Shown: piece by piece, positions 484-7,198 of the stretch
Position numbering within the stretch: position 1 is the first letter of the stretch
How the letters are laid out: every line of letters begins with the position of its first letter
Virus record (IMG/VR): IMGVR_UViG_2617271072_000001
Direction: 5' to 3' (one strand)
Length of the DNA: 7,198 nt
Source of the DNA: a virus
Lineage: Duplodnaviria > Heunggongvirae > Uroviricota > Caudoviricetes
Program-made: the position numbers and the translations under genes
Notes under the pieces: generated by a model
What the model saw: the letters and a program-made list of their open reading frames with translations, nothing else
Told to the model about the DNA's origin: nothing
The model's database searches: none

Positions 484-711
484 AAAAACCAGGTTCGTGC
501 TCATCTTTCCTTCCCGTTCTTCCCTGGTAGCAAACCGGTAATACACCGTTCGCCAGACCTTACCTTCGATAACCAGAAGACCTGCCCGTGCCATTTTAGC
601 CGCGGCCTGATTTATGCTGGTTACTGTTGCGCCTGTTAGCGCGGCAACGTCCGGCGCACAGAAGCTATTATGCGTCCCCAGGTAATGAATAATTGCCTCT
701 TTGCCCGTCAT
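469..711 (-). pseudogene. ren: ren (Rex-exclusion resistance), C-terminal coding region replaced by IS sequence
   Basis: The first ~76 residues (MTGKEAIIHYLGTHNSFCAPDVAALTGATV...) match lambda Ren as recalled; the ORF then ends VVVK-stop inside IS-derived sequence, about 20 residues short. Start codon at 711-709 overlaps the P stop (ATGA overlap), as in lambda. Confidence 0.7.
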
Positions 712-1409
712 ACACTTGCTCCTTTCAGTCCGAACTTAGCTTTGATTTCTGCGATCTTCGCCAGAGCCTGTGCACGATTTAGAGGTCTACCGCCCATGAC
801 AGGAAGTTGTTTTACTGGTTCAGGGATCGCCTCACCACGGTTAATTCTCGCAGTCATATGGACAAGCTCATCTGCGGCCTTACGGCGTAATTCCGCATCA
901 GTAAGCGCATTGGCCCGCATGTTCTGATACAGGTTGGTAACCAGCCAGTAGTGCGCGTTTGATTTCCACGGATAAGACTCCGCATCCGGATACAGGCCTC
1001 GCTTCCGGCAATACTCGTAAACCATATCAACCAGCTCGCTGACGTTTGGCAGTCCGGCGATAACGGATGCTTCTTCCCGGCACCATGCAACAAACTGCCC
1101 GGGTGATGGCAGAAATGGTCGATTCTGCCGACGGGCTACGCGCATTCCTGCGTTAACCTGTTCCATTGTGGTGATCCCGTTTTCCCGGAAAGCCAGAACC
1201 CACTGGCGGCGGATTTCGTTCAGTTCGTTCTGGTCACGGTTAGCCAGACTCGCCGGGAAAGTTGCCAGTAACTGGCTGAACACACCGTTGATGATCTGCG
1301 CTACCTGCTGTACCTGTGGCTTTTCGTCGTACTGTTCCGGCATGTTGTTGGCGATCCGACGCATCTGCTCACGGTCAAAGTTAACCATCTGTGCGGCGAT
1401 GTTTTTCAT
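708..1409 (-). CDS. P: Replication protein P (host DnaB helicase loader), lambda type
   Basis: 233-aa ORF, MKNIAAQMVNFDREQMRRIANNMPEQYDEKPQ..., matching lambda P in length and sequence as recalled. ATGA start/stop overlap with O at 1406-1409. Confidence 0.9.
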   Translation of the reverse strand: MKNIAAQMVNFDREQMRRIANNMPEQYDEKPQVQQVAQIINGVFSQLLATFPASLANRDQNELNEIRRQWVLAFRENGITTMEQVNAGMRVARRQNRPFLPSPGQFVAWCREEASVIAGLPNVSELVDMVYEYCRKRGLYPDAESYPWKSNAHYWLVTNLYQNMRANALTDAELRRKAADELVHMTARINRGEAIPEPVKQLPVMGGRPLNRAQALAKIAEIKAKFGLKGASV

Positions 1410-2305
1410 AGATCCACCCCGTAAATCCAGTCTGTGTTTGTCAGGTCGAGTTTTGATTTGCTGGCTGTCACGACTGCCTGTTGCTTGTTACGGTTGATTT
1501 CGAGCTGGGTCCACTTGTCGCGGAGTTTGGCCGGGCTAAGCACGTTACCGGACCAGAAGTTGTCCTGGCATGCCCAGCGGAACAGTACACACATGTCGCG
1601 ATGGTTACGTCCGTCACGTTCACGCATCAGGCGGATATCGTTAGCCCACCCAGCAAAATTCGGTTTTCTGGCTGATGGTGCGATAGTCTTCACCATGTCA
1701 AACATCCACTCTGCGGCGGTCAGGTCTTCTGCTGTCCCCCACTTGCTGCCGCTCTGAATTGCAGCATCCGGTTTAACCACAGAAAGATCGTTTTCTGGCT
1801 GGTCAGAGGATTCGCCAGAATTCTCGGACGAATAATCTTTTCTTTTTTCTTTTGTAATAGTGTCTTTTGTGTCCCCCTGTTTTGAGGGATAGCAATCCCC
1901 CAATTTGAGGGATGTTTTATCCCTCGTTTTAGGGGATTTTCCCTCGTTTTGAGGGATACACCATTCTGAGATGTTTTTATTTGGTCCAAACATGCCGCCT
2001 TGCTGCTTGATAATATTCATTCTGACGAGTTCTAACTTGGCTTCATTGCACCGTTTGACAGGTAACTTTGTAATCTCGCTAAGTTGAGAATCGGTGATTC
2101 TGTCCATTGGTTTATTCCACCCATAGGTTTTACGCAGAATGGCAAGCAGCACTTTAAACTGTCGCTTGGTCAGATCTGCGCCTGAATAAGCCTCAAGCAG
2201 CATATTTGATAGTCTGGCGTAACCATCATCGAGATCTGCCACATTACGCTCCTGTCCGGTAAAGTTACCTCTGCCGAAGTTGAGTATTTTTGCTGTATTT
2301 GTCAT
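1406..2305 (-). CDS. O: Replication initiator protein O, lambda type (299 aa)
   Basis: Protein begins MTNTAKILNFGRGNF... from ATG at 2305-2303, with AGGAG 5 nt upstream on the minus strand. The listed ORF 1406-2350 is an upstream in-frame extension without a ribosome-binding site. The gene contains the ori iterons, as in lambda. Confidence 0.9.
   Translation of the reverse strand: MTNTAKILNFGRGNFTGQERNVADLDDGYARLSNMLLEAYSGADLTKRQFKVLLAILRKTYGWNKPMDRITDSQLSEITKLPVKRCNEAKLELVRMNIIKQQGGMFGPNKNISEWCIPQNEGKSPKTRDKTSLKLGDCYPSKQGDTKDTITKEKRKDYSSENSGESSDQPENDLSVVKPDAAIQSGSKWGTAEDLTAAEWMFDMVKTIAPSARKPNFAGWANDIRLMRERDGRNHRDMCVLFRWACQDNFWSGNVLSPAKLRDKWTQLEINRNKQQAVVTASKSKLDLTNTDWIYGVDL
1871..1957. repeat. 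ori-lambda-type iterons: four ~19-bp direct repeats (O-protein binding sites) inside O, with adjacent AT-rich tract at about 1838-1866
   Basis: Four repeats of the form (t/a)tccc(c/t)c-N-ttt(g/a)ggggat at about 1872-1890, 1895-1913, 1919-1937 and 1939-1957, each an internal inverted repeat. A pyrimidine/AT-rich run ttttcttttttcttttgtaatag follows on the low-coordinate side. Confidence 0.85.
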
Positions 2306-2308
2306 AAT
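2280..2308 (+). promoter_or_regulatory. pO-like promoter for an oop-type antisense RNA
   Basis: TTGAGT (2280-2285), 17-bp spacer, CATAAT (2303-2308) on the plus strand, directed away from O and into the 3' end of c1. Confidence 0.5.
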
Positions 2309-2314
2309 GACTCC

Positions 2315-2382
2315 TGTGGATTGATCCAGTCTTTCTACATCAGGCCTCAAAACTGTTGCAGCAGTCTTGAGGCTTTTCTTTT
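2315..2382 (+). ncRNA. oop: OOP-like short antisense RNA overlapping the 3' end of c1 (cII family)
   Basis: Predicted start about 7 nt downstream of the -10. Intrinsic terminator with stem GCCTCAA (2344-2350) / TTGAGGC (2367-2373), inner pairing ACTG/CAGT, then TTTTCTTTT (2374-2382). The position is equivalent to lambda oop (between cII and O, antisense to the cII 3' end). Confidence 0.45.
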
Positions 2383-2618
2383 GTCAGCACCATGGCTACT
2401 TTCTTTGCTAGCTTTGCTAATTCCTCGTCTTCAACACCCCACTCCAGCACAGCCAGAAGCATGGCCATCTTTGGGATAAAGCTGTCTTTCCATCGCGAAA
2501 TTTGCGATTCATTAATCCCTAATGCATCAGCAACCTTTCGCTGACCACGTACAGCAATTCGATTCAGGATGTTGCTTGTGATTGCATTCGCTTTCTTGCG
2601 AGTACTTGTAAGTTGCAT
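2340..2618 (-). CDS. c1: CII-family transcriptional activator (P22 C1-like), 92 aa
   Basis: MQLTSTRKKANAITSNILNRIAVRGQRKVADALGINESQISRWK... resembles P22 C1 / lambda CII with a helix-turn-helix. ATG at 2618-2616 with AGGAAA 8 nt upstream on the minus strand. The listed 121-aa ORF is an upstream extension that runs across nutR. Confidence 0.8.
   Translation of the reverse strand: MQLTSTRKKANAITSNILNRIAVRGQRKVADALGINESQISRWKDSFIPKMAMLLAVLEWGVEDEELAKLAKKVAMVLTKEKPQDCCNSFEA
2572..2585 (+). promoter_or_regulatory. CII/C1 activator binding site (TTGC-N6-TTGC), -35 region of a pRE-like establishment promoter
   Basis: TTGC (2572-2575), spacer ttgtga, TTGC (2582-2585) on the plus strand, inside the 5' coding region of c1 and pointing through cro (antisense) toward c2, as for lambda pRE. 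Confidence 0.45.
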
Positions 2619-2676
2619 ATGTAAGTATTTCCTTAACAAATAAGAAGTTATACGCACCAACTGATGCGCGTTGTAT

Positions 2677-2720
2677 TCCCGCATTTCGGCGGGAATAAGG
2701 ACCATGACTGTTAAAGAGCA
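2677..2720 (-). promoter_or_regulatory. nutR: boxA (TGCTCTTTAA) plus boxB hairpin
   Basis: On the minus strand, boxA TGCTCTTTAA (plus-strand coordinates 2711-2720) is followed after 16 nt by a hairpin UCCCGC-CGAAAU-GCGGGA (2677-2694). The hairpin is identical to the one in nutL. Confidence 0.6.
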
Positions 2721-2726
2721 ATTTGC

Positions 2727-2912
2727 TTATGCCGCTTTGCGATAAGCACTTTCTTGATACTTCAGGGCGCCAGCTGTAACGACTTCCAGTCGATAGGCGT
2801 CTTTCTCTGGGATGACTTCCTTCCACTGAGAGACTGCTGCATCGCTAATGCCTAACGCTTTAGCTACCGCACGCTGGGTTCCGAAGTGGTCGATAACATC
2901 TTTCTTGTACAT
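2727..2912 (-). CDS. cro: Cro repressor, P22 type (61 aa)
   Basis: MYKKDVIDHFGTQRAVAKALGISDAAVSQWKEVIPEKDAYRLEVVTAGALKYQESAYRKAA, near-identical to P22 Cro as recalled. GGAG 10 nt upstream of the ATG on the minus strand. Confidence 0.85.
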   Translation of the reverse strand: MYKKDVIDHFGTQRAVAKALGISDAAVSQWKEVIPEKDAYRLEVVTAGALKYQESAYRKAA

Positions 2913-2926
2913 AGACTCGCTCCGAA

Positions 2927-2992
2927 ATTAAAGAACACTTAAATTATCTATCAAAGGAATCTTAAGTCAAGTTTATTTAAGATGTCTTAACT
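2927..2992. promoter_or_regulatory. OR operator cluster with divergent pR (to cro) and pRM (to c2)
   Basis: Two 18-bp sites fit the P22 C2 operator pattern ANTNAAG-N4-CTTNANT: ATTAAAGAACACTTAAAT (2927-2944) and ATTTAAGATGTCTTAACT (2975-2992), with a likely third between them. The c2 ATG follows immediately, so the pRM transcript is probably leaderless. Confidence 0.6.
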
Positions 2993-3643
2993 ATGAATAC
3001 ACAACTGATGGGTGAGCGTATTCGCGCTCGCAGAAAAGAACTTAAGATTAGGCAGGCTGCCCTTGGCAAGATGGTTGGCGTGTCTAATGTTGCTATTTCC
3101 CAATGGGAGCGTTCTGAAACTGAGCCCAATGGCGAAAACCTATTGGCTTTAGCCAAGGCTTTACAGTGCTCCCCTGATTACTTGTTGAAAGGAGAAGATA
3201 GTCTTTCAAACATTGCCTATCACAGCAGGCATGATCCAAGAGGTTCGTATCCTCTAATTAGTTGGGTAAGCGCAGGATGTTGGATGGAAGCTGTAGAGCC
3301 ATATCATAAGCGTGCAATAGATAACTGGTACGATACAACCGTAGATTGTTCAGAAGATTCGTTTTGGCTGGACGTAAAGGGTGATTCGATGACGGCTCCA
3401 GCCGGTCTTAGCATCCCGGAAGGGATGATAATACTAGTCGATCCTGAAGTAGAACCTCGTAATGGGAAGCTGGTAGTGGCAAAGCTCGAAGGAGAAAACG
3501 AGGCAACTTTCAAGAAGTTAGTTATTGATGCTGGCAGAAGGTTTCTAAAACCACTTAACCCACAATATCCGATGATTGAGATCAACGGGAACTGCAAAAT
3601 CATCGGTGTAGTTGTCGATGCAAAAATAGCAAACCTTCCATAA
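2993..3643 (+). CDS. c2: C2 repressor, P22 type (216 aa): N-terminal helix-turn-helix, C-terminal LexA-like S24 autopeptidase domain
   Basis: MNTQLMGERIRARRKELKIRQAALGKMVGVSNVAISQWERSE... matches P22 C2 as recalled. Ala-Gly cleavage site in VSAGCW; catalytic Ser in GDSM and Lys in the GKLVVAKL region. Confidence 0.9.
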   Translation: MNTQLMGERIRARRKELKIRQAALGKMVGVSNVAISQWERSETEPNGENLLALAKALQCSPDYLLKGEDSLSNIAYHSRHDPRGSYPLISWVSAGCWMEAVEPYHKRAIDNWYDTTVDCSEDSFWLDVKGDSMTAPAGLSIPEGMIILVDPEVEPRNGKLVVAKLEGENEATFKKLVIDAGRRFLKPLNPQYPMIEINGNCKIIGVVVDAKIANLP

Positions 3644-3665
3644 GGGGCATTCGCCCCTTTTTTTC
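3644..3665 (+). terminator. Intrinsic terminator directly after c2
   Basis: GGGGC (3644-3648), loop ATTC, GCCCC (3653-3657), followed by a run of 7 T. Confidence 0.6.
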
Positions 3666-3707
3666 TTTCCTTTAAAAATCAAAGCAAAACTTAAGCTTCG
3701 CAACAAA

Positions 3708-3762
3708 AATTTAAGTTTTCTTCAAAAACACTCTTGACCAATAGTTAAAGAAATCTTAAATT
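3708..3762 (+). promoter_or_regulatory. OL operators and pL promoter
   Basis: Operator-like site ATTTAAGTTTTCTTCAAA (3708-3725) and a second overlapping the promoter. TTGACC (3734-3739), 17-bp spacer, TAAATT (3757-3762), reading toward the N-like gene. Confidence 0.5.
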
Positions 3763-3807
3763 TAAGTCATCGGCAGGACGCTGGTAGCCAAACGGAACAG
3801 ATTGGCA

Positions 3808-3849
3808 GGCTCTTTAACATTGATGGGATTGTCCCGCCGAAATGCGGGA
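3808..3849 (+). promoter_or_regulatory. nutL: boxA (GGCTCTTTAAC) plus boxB hairpin
   Basis: boxA-like GCTCTTTA at 3809-3816, then after 14 nt a hairpin UCCCGC (3832-3837) / loop CGAAAU / GCGGGA (3844-3849), identical to the nutR hairpin. Confidence 0.6.
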
Positions 3850-3956
3850 ACCAAAGAGTAGTTGGCTTTGGGGTGACGTGAAGTGCAGCTGCACGACGGC
3901 AACCGGAAGATAAGCACCCGGCGCGTCACCGCCAAAGTCAATCATCGGAGGTCAAC

Positions 3957-4229
3957 ATGGCAGTAGTCATTACATATCTGGCTGACGATAACGCCAGAAA
4001 TCGCCGCAGAGCACGCAGACAGGCTCAACGTGAGCAGGCAATGCAAGAACAGCGACTGGCGCGAAAAATTGCGCTAAAGCTCTCTGGTTGCGTCAGAGCA
4101 GACAAAGCAGCATCACTCGGAAGCCTTCGCTGCAAGAAGGCAGATGAATGCAGTGGAAGTATTTGCCTGCCAAACGTAGCCATTTACGCGGCAGGCTACC
4201 GGAAATCAAAACAACTGACGGCGAGATGA
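3957..4229 (+). CDS. N-like transcription antiterminator (P22 gp24 / lambda N family), 90 aa
   Basis: N-terminal arginine-rich motif NARNRRRARRQAQREQ. The C-terminus ...LPNVAIYAAGYRKSKQLTAR resembles the P22 gp24 C-terminus as recalled. First gene downstream of pL and nutL; GGAGG 6 nt upstream of the ATG. Confidence 0.7.
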   Translation: MAVVITYLADDNARNRRRARRQAQREQAMQEQRLARKIALKLSGCVRADKAASLGSLRCKKADECSGSICLPNVAIYAAGYRKSKQLTAR

Positions 4230-4245
4230 TAAATTAATTTGCTAA

Positions 4246-4827
4246 TTACTTGTTTTTGCCATGCTTATCCTGAGCGATAAGTTCATCCATAAGACTGTCT
4301 TTCTTCCCAGCAAACCTAATGTAGCACTCATTTCTATAGCGTTCCGGGATAACAAAACGGTCGATTTCAGGATATCCAGTAGCAGAAGGTACCCGAATAA
4401 GAAGCCCTTTTTCGAGCAATGAGATTGCTTCAGGGCTTCCCTTTTCTGTCTTTAGCTGGTTATTAGCGGCTACAGCGAATGCCAAATACGCTCTTTCTCC
4501 AAGAGTTAACGAATCAAACAAATCTTGCACGTATTTCTCTTCTTTAGATTTGCGCTTCTGAGCAGCGAATATCTCAATTCTTTCAGTCACAGCGTGATAA
4601 GCGGAATTAACAACGCCGTTAAGCACATAGCTAACGCAAAACAACAGGATGTAATACATCCAGTAATGAGGAAGGATTTCTGGATTATGCAGGTTTATCC
4701 ATTCTTTTACGCTTACAGGCATAACAATAATCAATATGATTAGGATGATTAGCATATGAATCAACTGTTTAAGTGTCATTCCTTGCAGGAAAAAATGCAT
4801 TAGTTCCTGCCACCATGAGTTGTTCAT
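4246..4827 (-). CDS. sieB: Superinfection exclusion protein SieB-like membrane protein (193 aa)
   Basis: MNNSWWQELMHFFLQGMTLKQLIHMLIILIILIIVMPV... with two hydrophobic segments, lying between the N-like gene and ea10. Matches lambda/P22 SieB as recalled. Orientation is taken from the ORF itself. Confidence 0.65.
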   Translation of the reverse strand: MNNSWWQELMHFFLQGMTLKQLIHMLIILIILIIVMPVSVKEWINLHNPEILPHYWMYYILLFCVSYVLNGVVNSAYHAVTERIEIFAAQKRKSKEEKYVQDLFDSLTLGERAYLAFAVAANNQLKTEKGSPEAISLLEKGLLIRVPSATGYPEIDRFVIPERYRNECYIRFAGKKDSLMDELIAQDKHGKNK

Positions 4828-5041
4828 CGGCGTTTCTCTTTTGCTCTCTGTAGGGGTGAATAGAGTTTATCCGATTTCTCGCTGTAGGGGTACACGAGAA
4901 CCACCGAGCCTGATGTGGTTAAAAGACAGGCATACTAATAAACACTGCACTGTGTATTCATTCCAACGAGTGAATACACTGAGCAATGTCGCTCGTAACT
5001 AAACAGGAGCCGACTTGTTCTGATTATTGGAAATCTTCTTT

Positions 5042-5067
5042 GCCCTCCAATGTGAGGGCGATTTTTT
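5042..5067 (+). terminator. Intrinsic terminator upstream of ea10
   Basis: GCCCTC (5042-5047), loop CAATGT, GAGGGC (5054-5059), then ATTTTTT. No U-run on the opposite strand, so plus-strand specific. Confidence 0.5.
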
Positions 5068-5087
5068 ATCTGTGAGGATATGAATAG

Positions 5088-5456
5088 ATGTCAAACATCA
5101 AAAAATACATCATTGATTACGACTGGAAAGCATCAATAGAAATTGAAATCGACCATGACGTAATGACAGAGGAAAAACTTCACCAGATTAATAATTTCTG
5201 GTCAGACTCTGAATACCGACTCAATAAACACGGCTCTGTATTAAATGCTGTATTAATCATGCTGGCGCAACATGCTCTGCTTATAGCAATTTCAAGCGAC
5301 TTAAATGCATATGGTGTTGTGTGTGAGTTCGACTGGAATGATGGAAATGGTCAGGAAGGATGGCCTCCAATGGATGGTAGCGAAGGAATAAGAATTACCG
5401 ATATCGATACATCAGGAATATTTGATTCAGATGATATGACTATCAAAGCCGCCTGA
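5088..5456 (+). CDS. ea10: Ea10 (lambda early protein, reported ssDNA-binding), 122 aa
   Basis: MSNIKKYIIDYDWKASIEIEIDHDVMTEEKLHQINNFWSD... matches lambda Ea10 as recalled. GAGGA about 10 nt upstream. Confidence 0.75.
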   Translation: MSNIKKYIIDYDWKASIEIEIDHDVMTEEKLHQINNFWSDSEYRLNKHGSVLNAVLIMLAQHALLIAISSDLNAYGVVCEFDWNDGNGQEGWPPMDGSEGIRITDIDTSGIFDSDDMTIKAA

Positions 5457-5480
5457 GCGCGGCGTTACCGCATACCAATA

Positions 5481-5504
5481 ACGCTTCACTCGAGGCGTTT
5501 TTTC
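5481..5504 (+). terminator. Possible intrinsic terminator between ea10 and cIII
   Basis: ACGCUUC (5481-5487), loop ACUC, GAGGCGU (5492-5498) with one G-U pair, then UUUUU. Confidence 0.4.
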
Positions 5505-5529
5505 GTTATGTATAAATAAGGAGCACACC

Positions 5530-5694
5530 ATGCAATATGCCATTGCAGGGTGGCCTGTTGCTGGCTGCCCTTCCGAATCTTTACTTGAACGAATCACCCG
5601 TAAATTACGTGACGGATGGAAACGCCTTATCGACATACTTAATCAGCCAGGAGTCCCAAAAAATGGATCAAACACTTATGGCTATCCAGACTAA
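5530..5694 (+). CDS. cIII: CIII (inhibitor of FtsH, stabilises CII), 54 aa
   Basis: [54 protein letters not shown] matches lambda CIII as recalled. AAGGAG 7 nt upstream. Confidence 0.85.
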   Translation: MQYAIAGWPVAGCPSESLLERITRKLRDGWKRLIDILNQPGVPKNGSNTYGYPD

Positions 5695-5806
5695 ATTCAC
5701 TATCGCCACTTTTATTGGCGATGAAAAGATGTTTCGTGAGGCCGTCGACGCTTATAAAAAATGGATATTAATACTGAAACTGAGATCAAGCAAAAGCATT
5801 CACTAA
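5663..5806 (+). CDS. kil: Kil (host cell-division inhibitor acting on FtsZ), 47 aa
   Basis: [47 protein letters not shown] matches lambda Kil as recalled. AGGAG upstream. Start overlaps the cIII 3' end and the 3' end overlaps gam. Confidence 0.8.
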
Positions 5807-6177
5807 CCTCCTTTCCTGTTTTCCTAATCAGCCCGGCATTTCGCGGGCGATATTTTCACAGCTATTTCAGGAGTTCAGCCATGAACGCTTATTACATTCA
5901 GGATCGTCTTGAGGCTCAGAGCTGGACGCGTCACTACCAGCAGATCGCCCGTGAAGAGAAAGAGGCAGAACTGGCAGACGACATGGAAAAAGGTCTGCCC
6001 CAGCACCTGTTTGAATCACTCTGCATCGATCATTTACAACGCCACGGGGCCAGCAAAAAAGCCATTACCCGTGCGTTTGATGACGATGTTGAGTTTCAGG
6101 AGCGCATGGCAGAACACATCCGGTACATGGTTGAAACCATTGCTCACCACCAGGTTGATATTGATTCAGAGGTATAA
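5761..6177 (+). CDS. gam: Gam (RecBCD inhibitor); 138-aa long form, with a 98-aa short form starting at 5881
   Basis: Near-identical to lambda Gam as recalled. The ATG at 5881 ([12 protein letters not shown]...) has AGGAG 8 nt upstream, whereas the ATG at 5761 has no obvious Shine-Dalgarno sequence. Confidence 0.9.
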
Positions 6178-6182
6178 AACGG

Positions 6183-6968
6183 ATGAGTACAGCACTCGCA
6201 ACGCTGGCTGGGAAGCTGGCTGAACGCGTCGGCATGGATTCTGTCGACCCACAGGAACTGATCACCACTCTTCGCCAGACGGCATTTAAAGGTGATGCCA
6301 GCGATGCGCAGTTCATCGCATTGCTGATCGTCGCCAACCAGTACGGCCTTAATCCGTGGACGAAAGAAATTTACGCCTTCCCTGACAAGCAGAACGGCAT
6401 CGTTCCGGTGGTGGGCGTTGATGGCTGGTCCCGTATCATCAATGAAAACCAGCAGTTTGATGGCATGGACTTTGAGCAGGACAATGAATCCTGCACATGC
6501 CGGATTTACCGCAAAGACCGCAATCATCCGATCTGCGTTACCGAGTGGATGGATGAATGCCGCCGCGAACCATTCAAAACCCGCGAAGGCAGAGAAATCA
6601 CGGGGCCGTGGCAGTCGCATCCCAAACGGATGTTACGGCATAAAGCCATGATTCAGTGTGCCCGTCTCGCCTTCGGATTTGCTGGTATCTATGACAAGGA
6701 TGAAGCCGAGCGCATTGTCGAAAATACCGCATACACTGCAGAACGTCAGCCGGAACGCGACATCACTCCGGTTAACGATGAAACCATGCAGGAGATTAAC
6801 ACTCTGCTGATTGCCCTGGATAAAACATGGGATGACGACTTATTGCCGCTCTGTTCCCAGATATTTCGCCGCGACATTCGCGCATCATCAGAACTGACAC
6901 AGGCCGAAGCAGTGAAAGCTCTTGGATTCCTGAAACAGAAAGCCACTGAGCAGAAGGTGGCTGCATGA
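6183..6968 (+). CDS. bet: Bet / Red-beta single-strand annealing recombinase (261 aa)
   Basis: [66 protein letters not shown]... matches lambda Bet over its full length as recalled. Confidence 0.95.
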
Positions 6969-7198
6969 CACCGGACATTATCCTGCAGCGTACCGGAATC
7001 GACGTGAGAGCTGTCGAACAGGGGGATGATGCGTGGCACAAATTACGGCTCGGCGTCATCACCGCTTCAGAAGTTCACAATGTGATAGCAAAACCCCGCT
7101 CCGGAAAAAAGTGGCCTGACATGAAAATGTCCTACTTCCACACCCTGCTGGCTGAGGTTTGCACCGGTGTGGCTCCGGAAGTTAATGCTAAGGCGCTG
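6965..7198 (+). CDS. exo: Exo / Red-alpha 5'-3' exonuclease, 5' partial (runs off the right edge)
   Basis: [65 protein letters not shown]... matches the lambda Exo N-terminus as recalled. ATGA overlap with the bet stop; AGGTGG upstream; open to the window end. Confidence 0.9.

Follow-up and report, generated by a model that had tools for sequence, protein, structure and literature searches.

The early region analyzed here raises the question of which phages its parts derive from and where those parts are joined. The window, by which we mean the whole 7,198-nt stretch of viral DNA (IMG/VR record IMGVR_UViG_2617271072_000001), is the early control region of an E. coli lambda-like prophage that has a phage 21/P22-type repressor switch together with lambda-type replication and recombination genes. 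An initial annotation had placed a P22-class immunity switch between lambda-type replication and Red/early-left modules, and blastn and protein identities both bear this out. The mosaic is real and ordinary, and its grain is finer than that annotation had it. In the genome annotation, ybhC adjoins the prophage, which has its own integrase; we take the ybhC neighborhood to be the lambda attachment site.

Results

Lambda-type modules flank a non-lambda block

Blocks were compared by blastn with lambda, P22, 21, HK140, N7, VT1-Sakai, and Lambda_ev245 (ev245), alongside a sliding identity profile. Positions 484 to 2330 (minus strand), covering ren′ (484-711), P (708-1409), and O (1406-2305), align to lambda without gaps at 98.8% nucleotide identity. 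The O and P products are 99.0% and 99.1% identical to the lambda proteins and match Pfam Phage_rep_O and Phage_lambda_P. Four lambda-type ori iterons lie inside the O gene at 1873-1956, in line with the lambda-type iterons noted in the initial annotation; at least four matches were seen in 0 of 200 shuffles. Orthologues of O and P, with four O-binding iterons within O, identify a lambda replication module. A 314-aa TTG-initiated O reading frame (1406-2350) was rejected; the lambda O start maps to 2305.

On the other side, 4937 to 7198 (plus strand) is 97.8% identical to lambda and carries ea10 (5088-5456), cIII (5530-5694), kil (5663-5806), gam (5761-6177), bet (6183-6968), and the start of exo (6965 onward). 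Identity to the lambda proteins is 100% for Ea10, CIII, and Kil, 99.6% for Bet, and 97% for Gam. The lambda gene order and a cIII thermometer RNA at 5517-5575 (Rfam Lambda_thermo, 88.5 bits against a gathering score of 50) identify the lambda Red/early-left module. Apart from the thermometer, the Rfam scan (E ≤ 1) gave nothing at gathering score and no model for oop or the nut sites, so the calls for those elements rest on folding and on alignment to annotated P22/21 features.

An IS3-family insertion sequence interrupts ren; the first 483 nt (plus strand) are its right end, with Pfam rve, rve_3, and rve_2 matches on a reading frame at 37-414 that PGAP labels "IS3 family transposase." Its ends read TGTAGTGG...CCACTACA, and it is flanked by a 3-bp duplication, AAA, relative to lambda. 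This element lies outside the mosaic proper.

Between the flanks, 2331 to 4847 gave chance-level matches only to lambda (blastn, word size 7, E ≤ 10), the best being 20 nt (E of 4e-4) and 36 nt in the conserved cI C-terminal domain. A hidden lambda ancestry for the switch was rejected on this sensitive search, which returned those two matches and noise. Similarity to P22 is 82.1% over 2298-3825 and 86.8% over 4167-4932 (E = 0 for each), and 3826-4166 showed no blastn similarity to P22. The alignment check proposed with the initial annotation thus came out as expected, identity to a single reference not being uniform along the window. That annotation had ended the block at 4229; the non-lambda block runs to about 4847-4850, some 620 bp further right, and includes a missed sieB gene. 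The gene coordinates given for the switch stand, namely c1/cII at 2340-2618 (minus), cro at 2727-2912 (minus), the repressor at 2993-3643 (plus), and an N-family gene at 3957-4229 (plus).

The predicted switch is of the phage 21/P22 type

The repressor gene (cI/c2) encodes a protein with Pfam HTH_3 and Peptidase_S24 domains that is 98.6% identical to 21 cI, 93.1% to P22 C2, and 31.6% to lambda cI. Over residues 1 to 53, which include the helix-turn-helix, K16E is the sole difference from P22 C2. The shared DNA-recognition helix-turn-helix and LexA-like S24 cleavage domain mark the protein as an orthologue of P22 C2 and 21 cI. Scanning and folding placed an intrinsic terminator 3′ of the gene at 3642-3668. 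Cro (Pfam P22_Cro, E of 9e-28) is 96.7% identical to the 21 protein, 95.1% to the P22 protein, and 24% to lambda Cro. For repressor, Cro, and C1, identities of 93, 95, and 89% to P22 against 32, 24, and 45% to lambda agree with the earlier view that the immunity proteins are far nearer P22 than lambda.

A P22-like operator pattern had also been noted, and six P22/21-type 18-bp operators were found. Three make up the right operator region (2927-2992), at 2927-2944, 2950-2967, and 2975-2992, as located by operator alignment and a pattern scan; alignment to annotated 21/P22 operators placed the other three in the left operator region (3679-3762, plus strand), at 3679-3696, 3709-3726, and 3744-3761. 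All are near-identical to P22/21 operators (0 to 3 nt apart); compared with the closer of the two, five sites differ by 0 to 2 nt and 3679-3696 by 3 nt. Five of the six match ANTNAAGN4CTTNANT with at most one mismatch. The promoter scan gave a pR-like promoter (2970 to 2943, minus strand) and a pL-like promoter (3734-3762, plus strand), which are divergent and overlap the tripartite operators. Judged from these sequences, the switch of repressor, Cro, OR, and OL is of the phage 21/P22 immC immunity class. The 21 and P22 repressors reportedly recognize each other's operators. When literature support for this shared operator specificity was looked for, a citation of Poteete et al. 1980 (J Mol Biol 137:81) alone turned up. 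Joint transfer of cI and cro is frequent (PMC9836094).

P22-type c1 and oop adjoin the left junction

The c1/cII lysogeny activator gene encodes a protein that matches Pfam Phage_CII over its full length (E of 2e-44) and is 89% identical to P22 C1, 45% to lambda CII, and 23% to phage 21 CII. A 121-aa form (2340-2705), annotated in HK140 and N7, was rejected, as it would cross the nutR boxB; the 92-aa form is preferred because P22 C1 and the full Pfam model match it. A candidate pRE activator site, TTGC-N6-TTGT, was placed by alignment at 2596-2609. On the plus strand, a pO promoter-like site (TTGAGT-17-CATAAT with an upstream TG, 2280-2308) was found by promoter scan. A P22-type oop antisense RNA is predicted at about 2316-2384 from the position of the annotated P22 oop promoter and terminator; it would overlap the c1 3′ end and finish in a strong hairpin (2342-2375; −25.8 kcal/mol, z = −4.2) followed by a U-run.

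The initial annotation had put the left junction at 2306-2340, in the oop/O-start region, and the alignments confirm and narrow this. A 33-bp island (2298-2330), conserved in lambda, 21, P22, N7, HK140, and VT1-Sakai, spans the O start codon, the O Shine-Dalgarno sequence, the pO −10 element, and the oop 5′ end. Within it, 2302 and 2309 are lambda-like as opposed to P22-like, and 2318 and 2322 are P22/HK140/N7-like as opposed to lambda-like. These differences bracket the crossover at 2310-2317 (lambda 38674-38681), at the O ribosome-binding site and pO/oop start, and lambda similarity stops at 2330.

N and its nut sites as a matched set

The N-family antiterminator gene (Pfam N_peptide, PF25694; E of 2e-15, 57.5 bits against a cut-off of 27.9) lies just downstream of pL-nutL, with boxA and boxB at both nut sites, as in the lambdoid N family. 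Its product is 36% identical to P22 gp24, 42% to 21 N, and 13% to lambda N. The protein starts MAVVITYLADDNARNRRRARRQAQREQ, and its arginine-rich N-terminus is DDNARNRRRARRQAQREQ. Blastn blocks and sliding identity divide the gene into three parts: 3957-4054, which holds the arginine-rich motif, is of the N7/HK140 type; 4055-4148 is common to 21, VT1-Sakai, N7, and HK140; and from 4149 on the sequence is of the VT1-Sakai/HK140 type, with P22-like sequence confined to the last ~60 nt, from 4167.

At nutR (2674-2720, minus strand; fold z = −2.5), boxA is at 2709-2720 and the boxB hairpin at 2674-2697 (UUCCCGCCGAAAUGCGGGAA). At nutL (3808-3849, plus strand; alignment and folding), boxA is at 3808-3819 and the boxB hairpin at 3832-3849. 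The two sites share boxB UCCCGCCGAAAUGCGGGA and boxA GCUCUUUA, and their hairpins are stable. As RNA, boxB reads UCCCGC-CGAAAU-GCGGGA, a stem of at least 6 bp closing a GAAA-containing hexaloop. The nutR boxB is found also in N7 and HK140 and is unlike those of P22, 21, and lambda; local P22 identity at nutR drops to 48 to 60% in the sliding profile. An identical nutL is present in HK140 and N7.

The N gene had been called gp24-like. This assignment as a P22 gene 24-type N was rejected: gp24 identity is 36%, the P22 motif GNAKTRRHERRRKLAIER and P22 boxB GCGCUGACAAAGCGC are absent, and the arginine-rich motif and boxBs are of the N7/HK140 class. The N 5′ end and both boxBs are common to the window, N7, and HK140, and in VT1-Sakai a 21-type N 5′ end occurs together with 21-type boxBs; N and boxB travel together. 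This N-boxB pair assorts without regard to cI/cro immunity type: it is present too in HK140, whose cI and cro differ and whose repressor is unrelated. A somewhat less than even case can be made that N and its two nut sites constitute a recognition pair orthogonal to the biochemically studied lambda, P22, and phage 21 pairs. The literature searched gave no description of such a fourth N-boxB specificity; variant N termini have been noted earlier, for example in phage epsilon34 (PMC2629481).

A P22-type sieB precedes the right junction, where ral is lost

The superinfection-exclusion gene sieB (4246-4827, minus strand; Pfam SieB, E of 1e-25) is encoded opposite to N. Its product shares 84% identity with P22 SieB against 20% with the lambda protein, and at nucleotide level the gene is 98 to 99.7% identical to those of HK140 and VT1-Sakai. 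Upstream lies an 85-bp island (4848-4932) located by alignment and by the P22 annotation of the sieB promoter and RNA start. It holds two CTGTAGGGGT repeats, is conserved in lambda, P22, HK140, VT1-Sakai, and ev245, and matches lambda at 80 of 85 positions and the annotated P22 sieB promoter region at 84 of 85. P22-type bases at 4858-4863 and a lambda-type base at 4914 set the crossover interval at 4864-4913. The right junction does lie between N and ea10, as had been proposed; the suggested involvement of ral does not hold, the crossover being in the sieB promoter island. Nor is the ral region simply altered. At 4933-4936, 4 bp replace 340 bp of lambda (34056-34395, ral and orf28; blastn and alignment), so that ral is lost outright, and VT1-Sakai and ev245 have the same deletion joint. 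Both crossover intervals are defined against present-day references and not true parents, and the real exchange points may lie elsewhere within or slightly outside the islands.

Distribution

At least 80% of the window is present in 78 complete E. coli genomes, and at least 80% of the immunity block in 76. Carrier isolates come from humans, poultry, swine, giant panda, soil, and seawater, and some wild isolates have the arrangement interrupted by an IS. None of 521 matching phage-collection records covers 80% or more of the window, so the whole arrangement was not found in an isolated phage there. Its nearest relatives are found among E. coli phages; P22 itself is more distant.

Discussion

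The region exemplifies textbook module swapping among lambdoid phages; it is no new system, as the initial annotation had also judged, and the arrangement is already known. The non-lambda segment (2331-4847) is a composite of at least five sub-blocks, which are most closely related to phages of E. coli: phage 21 at 95 to 100% over cro-OR-cI 5′, and N7, HK140, and VT1-Sakai elsewhere, against 82 to 87% for P22. Its parts are a P22-type c1 with matching oop, a cro-operator-cI core nearly identical to that of phage 21, an N N-terminus and both boxBs as a matched N7/HK140-class set, and a P22-type sieB.

Among other origins, one contiguous P22-derived immunity module, from c1 to N, might have entered a lambda backbone through one double crossover. 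P22 similarity over 2298-3825 and 4167-4932, c1, cro, c2, and sieB products 84 to 95% identical to P22 proteins, and outer junctions that both fall in islands shared by lambda and P22 speak for such an event, which is nonetheless improbable. P22 reaches only 82 to 87% nucleotide identity where 21, N7, HK140, and VT1-Sakai reach 95 to 100% on sub-blocks; 3826-4166, with the nutL boxB and two thirds of N, is not P22-like, nor is the nutR boxB; and the "lambda-type" flanks are equally close to 21, ev245, and HK140 (98.6 to 99.4%), so the backbone need not be lambda.

It is less credible still, to the point of being negligible, that the sequenced strain harbored a lambda imm21 derivative made in the laboratory, the DE3 prophage for example. 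Lambda imm21, lambda h434 imm21, and DE3 are indeed the top phage records (77% coverage, about 95% identity), but in these hybrids cII is that of phage 21 (23% identity to the protein encoded here), the arginine-rich motif of N (N 42%) and the boxB are likewise of the 21 type, ral is intact, and sieB is lacking, differences that refute the identity, and the arrangement occurs in wild isolates from many hosts. An assembly chimera joining two prophages of one genome is extremely unlikely as well. Several lambdoid prophages are common per E. coli genome (a median of 2 matching places, up to 20), yet the identical join recurs at 99.4 to 100% identity in 76 to 78 independently sequenced complete genomes, and reading frames and regulatory sites are intact across both junctions. 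With high confidence, then, the window comes from a natural lambdoid prophage that sits beside ybhC and represents its early region, of immunity class 21/P22 immC, with lambda-type flanks and a composite middle; no observation contradicts this reading.

Such a natural prophage may have arisen by homologous or homeologous recombination between co-resident lambdoid phages in short conserved islands at module borders, here the 33-bp O ribosome-binding site/pO island and the sieB promoter island of 85 bp; additional exchanges would have taken place within the block. Lambdoid mosaics are documented to form by Red-promoted homeologous recombination where the flanks have diverged (PMC2327257). Seven references were compared, and the order and number of recombination events are beyond reconstruction from them. 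The function of every part is taken from its orthologues, each gene having a characterized counterpart that is near-identical. On that footing, repressor bound at the six operators would turn off pR and pL; Cro, C1, and CIII would set the lysis-lysogeny decision; N acting at nutL and nutR would allow early transcripts to extend into the lambda-type Red and replication genes; and SieB would abort superinfecting phages.

Phage 21 and lambda imm21 (including DE3) resemble the window in the cro-OR-cI 5′ half (95 to 100% nucleotide identity), and phage 21 has the same operator sequences and the same lambda-type O-P and ea10-to-exo flanks (98.7% and 97.3%). It differs in its own-type cII (23% identity; the window's is of the P22 c1 type), in the N arginine-rich motif and both boxBs, in lacking sieB, into which the window's N 3′ end runs on, and in having ral. 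The P22 immC region (c1-cro-c2-24-sieB) has the same gene order and orientation, similar products (C1 89%, Cro 95%, C2 93%, SieB 84%), near-identical operators, the oop/c1 overlap, and the sieB promoter island. Yet it shares only 82 to 87% nucleotide identity, and its gene 24 product (36%), arginine-rich motif, and boxB are different; P22 also carries 18/12 replication and erf/abc recombination genes where the window has O/P and Red, and the window has no immI region.

HK140 is 99.4% identical over 484-2419, a stretch that crosses the left junction; for N and sieB (3942-4932) the figure is 98.1%. VT1-Sakai and ev245 are 99 to 99.7% identical from mid-N through sieB and the ral deletion joint into ea10. 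The cI/cro immunity types of all three are unrelated to that of the window, and in them additional genes separate cI from N. Over 2213-4148, N7 shares 92% identity with the window, and 98 to 100% over nutL and most of N, but it has other replication and recombination genes and lacks sieB. The laboratory hybrid lambda cI857(18,12)P22 has its exchange point in the same island, a short conserved stretch that takes in pO and the beginning of the replication genes; its pO is hybrid (lambda −10 and P22 −35), and divergence is at about lambda 38694 (PMC3349717). It is the reciprocal case, combining lambda immunity with P22 replication genes, whereas the window joins P22-type c1/oop to lambda replication genes.

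The value of these results lies mainly in annotation, the locus being a clean worked example of the lambdoid modular-genome picture. The two outer junctions map to short conserved islands where functional units meet, one at the pO/O ribosome-binding site and one at the sieB promoter, and matched sets move together: the operators go with cI and cro, oop with c1, and both boxBs with the arginine-rich motif of N. If the N-boxB pair is indeed orthogonal, a fourth, uncharacterized peptide-RNA specificity would come from a prophage lineage that is widespread in E. coli. For typing, the prophage is neither "lambda" nor "P22" but combines immunity class 21/P22, lambda-type replication genes, and integration beside ybhC. 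Its hosts are probably immune to imm21-class phages and probably gain SieB-type exclusion from it.

Gene content and similarity to lambda and P22

The minus strand of the window carries ren' (484-711), P (708-1409), O (1406-2305; start codon 2303-2305), c1/cII (2340-2618), cro (2727-2912) and sieB (4246-4827). Four ori iterons lie at 1873-1956. On the plus strand are the repressor gene (cI/c2; 2993-3643), an N-family gene (3957-4229), ea10 (5088-5456), cIII (5530-5694), kil (5663-5806), gam (5761-6177), bet (6183-6968) and the start of exo (6965 onward). The lambda cIII thermoregulator (Lambda_thermo, RF01804) gave a full-length Rfam match at 5517-5575 (88.5 bits; E = 3e-21), immediately upstream of the cIII start and overlapping it. 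Two longer reading frames were rejected. A 121-aa c1 (2340-2705), as annotated in HK140 and N7, would cross the nutR boxB, and the 92-aa form matches P22 C1; a TTG-initiated 314-aa O (1406-2350) overlaps c1, and the 299-aa form matches lambda O.

Segments of seven references (lambda, P22, phage 21, HK140, N7, VT1-Sakai and Lambda_ev245) were compared with the window by blastn. Lambda matched 484-2330 without gaps at 98.8%, 4848-4932 at 94% and 4937-7198 at 97.8%. Over 2331-4847, a search with word size 7 and E ≤ 10 found no lambda similarity beyond matches of 20 and 36 nt. P22 matched 2298-3825 at 82.1% and 4167-4932 at 86.8%, with no blastn similarity over 3826-4166. Neither reference is therefore uniformly similar to the window. 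O, P, Ea10, CIII, Kil, Gam and Bet were 97 to 100% identical to their lambda counterparts at the protein level. For the other proteins compared, identities to lambda, P22 and phage 21, respectively, were 32, 93 and 98.6% for cI, 24, 95 and 97% for Cro, 45, 89 and 23% for CII/C1, and 13, 36 and 42% for N; SieB, compared with lambda and P22, gave 20 and 84%. All six operators aligned with those annotated in 21 and P22 and are near-identical to them. These results bear out the initial annotation in its description of a P22-type immunity switch, closer to P22 than to lambda, between lambda-type flanks.

The initial annotation was wrong, however, in ending the non-lambda block at 4229, since lambda remains unmatched to 4847; sieB was missed. 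Its description of N as gp24-like was also not sustained, given 36% identity to P22 and the lack of a P22 nucleotide match over 3826-4166.

In the phage 21 record (OL657228), the label "OR2" stands on two OR operators, and the deposited cI CDS is shorter (573 nt, start 4114) than the reading frame at 4036-4686. Alignment with P22 c2 and the window supports a 651-nt phage 21 cI, which would start directly after the operator, over the 573-nt CDS.

Both junctions lie in short conserved islands

At the left junction, a 33-bp island (2298-2330) common to lambda, 21, P22, N7, HK140 and Sakai spans the O start codon, the O Shine-Dalgarno sequence and the pO -10. Since the window agrees with lambda at 2302 and 2309 but with P22, HK140 and N7 at 2318 and 2322, the exchange is bracketed to 2310-2317 (lambda 38674-38681), within the region near 2306-2340 where it had been expected. 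A promoter-like site (2280-2308) and a strong hairpin with a U-run (2342-2384; -25.8 kcal/mol, z = -4.2) correspond in position to the oop promoter and terminator, respectively, of the P22 annotation. The replication side of the exchange thus holds pO, and the immunity side holds the oop body, necessarily antisense to its own c1. The junction of the laboratory hybrid lambda cI857(18,12)P22 lies within the same island, about 15 to 20 bp away, and its arrangement is the reciprocal one (PMC3349717).

The right junction lies in an 85-bp island (4848-4932), the counterpart of the sieB promoter annotated in P22. Of its 85 positions, 80 agree with lambda and 84 with P22. The bases at 4858-4863 are of P22 type and the base at 4914 is of lambda type, which confines the exchange to 4864-4913. 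The initial annotation had placed this junction between N and ea10, possibly in an altered ral region; the interval was right, and the exchange itself falls in the sieB promoter island. Within the island, CTGTAGGGGT occurs twice as a direct repeat (4848-4857 and 4883-4892). Lambda keeps the repeat even though its sieB coding sequence shares only 20% identity with that of the window, which points to a conserved element regulating sieB expression. The ral region is indeed changed, but by outright loss: directly after the island, ral and orf28 (340 bp; lambda 34056-34395) are replaced by 4 bp (4933-4936). The joint is identical in VT1-Sakai and Lambda_ev245, and sequence comparison thus identifies the deletion as an old natural variant, not private to this prophage.

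The non-lambda block is itself a mosaic

A sliding identity profile and the blastn blocks divided 2331-4847 into at least five sub-blocks. The first, c1 and oop, is P22-type (75 to 97% to P22), 99.4% identical to HK140 and unrelated to phage 21. The second is an N7/HK140-type patch around the nutR boxB (~2650-2709), where P22 identity falls to 48 to 60%. The third, cro, OR and the 5′ half of cI, is 93 to 100% identical to phage 21. The fourth comprises the 3′ half of cI, OL, nutL and the first third of N; N7 is nearest, reaching 98 to 100% from nutL through N, joined by HK140 from 3942. In the fifth, the middle third of N is common to 21, Sakai, N7 and HK140, and the last third into sieB is Sakai/HK140-like (98 to 99.7%), with P22 at 87%. 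For every sub-block there is a sequenced E. coli phage with an identity of at least 98% along all or part of it; for the 3′ half of cI with OL the figure is ~90 to 97%. No single phage record covering at least 80% of the window was found.

Among named systems, the phage 21 immunity region, with its lambda imm21 hybrids (PMC9119081), and P22 immC come closest. A lambda imm21 hybrid was ruled out, because the window differs from one in cII, in N with its nut sites, in ral status and in sieB. Direct transfer from P22, to which the initial annotation had likened the block, was ruled out as well: nucleotide identity to P22 is only 82 to 87%, and N is non-P22. The nearest relatives are E. coli phages instead.

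The boxB hairpin UCCCGCCGAAAUGCGGGA is the same at nutL (3832-3849) and nutR (2674-2697), and the arginine-rich N terminus of N forms a matched set with both hairpins. The same set occurs in N7 and in HK140, whose repressor is unrelated, and in VT1-Sakai an N terminus of the 21 type goes with boxBs of that type. P22-like phages have already been noted to carry variant N termini that imply new boxB specificities (PMC2629481). The N-boxB pair of the window may be a biochemically distinct specificity class.

Occurrence in E. coli prophages

The full-length window was matched at 99.9 to 100% (rounded) in the prophage of E. coli strain 13KWH46 and in five more complete genomes, and dozens of further genomes matched 484-7198 at 99.4 to 99.6%. 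At least 80% of the window was present in 78 of 5,426 complete genomes, and the whole arrangement is annotated in RefSeq genomes. The 13KWH46 prophage extends from a terminase and lysis cassette via the nin genes to int-xis and adjoins ybhC, a gene that borders the lambda attachment site.

The right end of an IS3-family element (1-483), with element ends TGTAGTGG...CCACTACA and a flanking 3-bp duplication (AAA), is inserted in ren; a second ren fragment lies beyond it in CP019250, an E. coli prophage locus matching the window. Most relatives (the 99.6% group) appear to lack the element, as their matches start at window 484.

The window differs from CP019250 by three single-base homopolymer changes. 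One extra A at 3705, in the A-run that separates OL3 from OL2, and one extra T at 5498, in the T-run following the ea10 terminator hairpin, are intergenic. The third, one G fewer in a G-run at 406-409, towards the 3′ end of orfB of the IS transposase, makes the ORF stop at 414 instead of ~477 and reflects either a genuine frameshift or a sequencing error in the homopolymer.

In the remainder of that prophage (CP019250 4060694-4072000; positions 1-11300 of the extracted locus), the late genes nohD, essD and rrrD are named after DLP12, which sets the late region apart from that of lambda. The prophage also carries rusA and encodes a Q-family antiterminator and a Dam-like methyltransferase. The late region may resemble that of phage 21, making the whole prophage mosaic at a larger scale.

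Proposed function and origin

By analogy with characterized orthologues, the repressor would silence pR and pL from OR and OL, and Cro, C1 and CIII would set the lysis-lysogeny decision, with oop acting on c1 as an antisense control. N at boxB, with host Nus factors at boxA, would carry antitermination into the lambda-type replication and Red genes, and SieB would exclude superinfecting phages.

Our comparisons establish which genes and sites are present, which blocks of similarity they fall into, where the junctions lie and that the arrangement occurs in many genomes. The mosaic probably arose by recombination within short conserved islands between coresident lambdoid phages, a kind of route that has experimental support for lambda Red (PMC2327257). 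This origin would be consistent with the frequent cotransfer of cI and cro (PMC9836094). As the initial annotation correctly held, the arrangement is the expected modular exchange of lambdoid phages rather than a new system.
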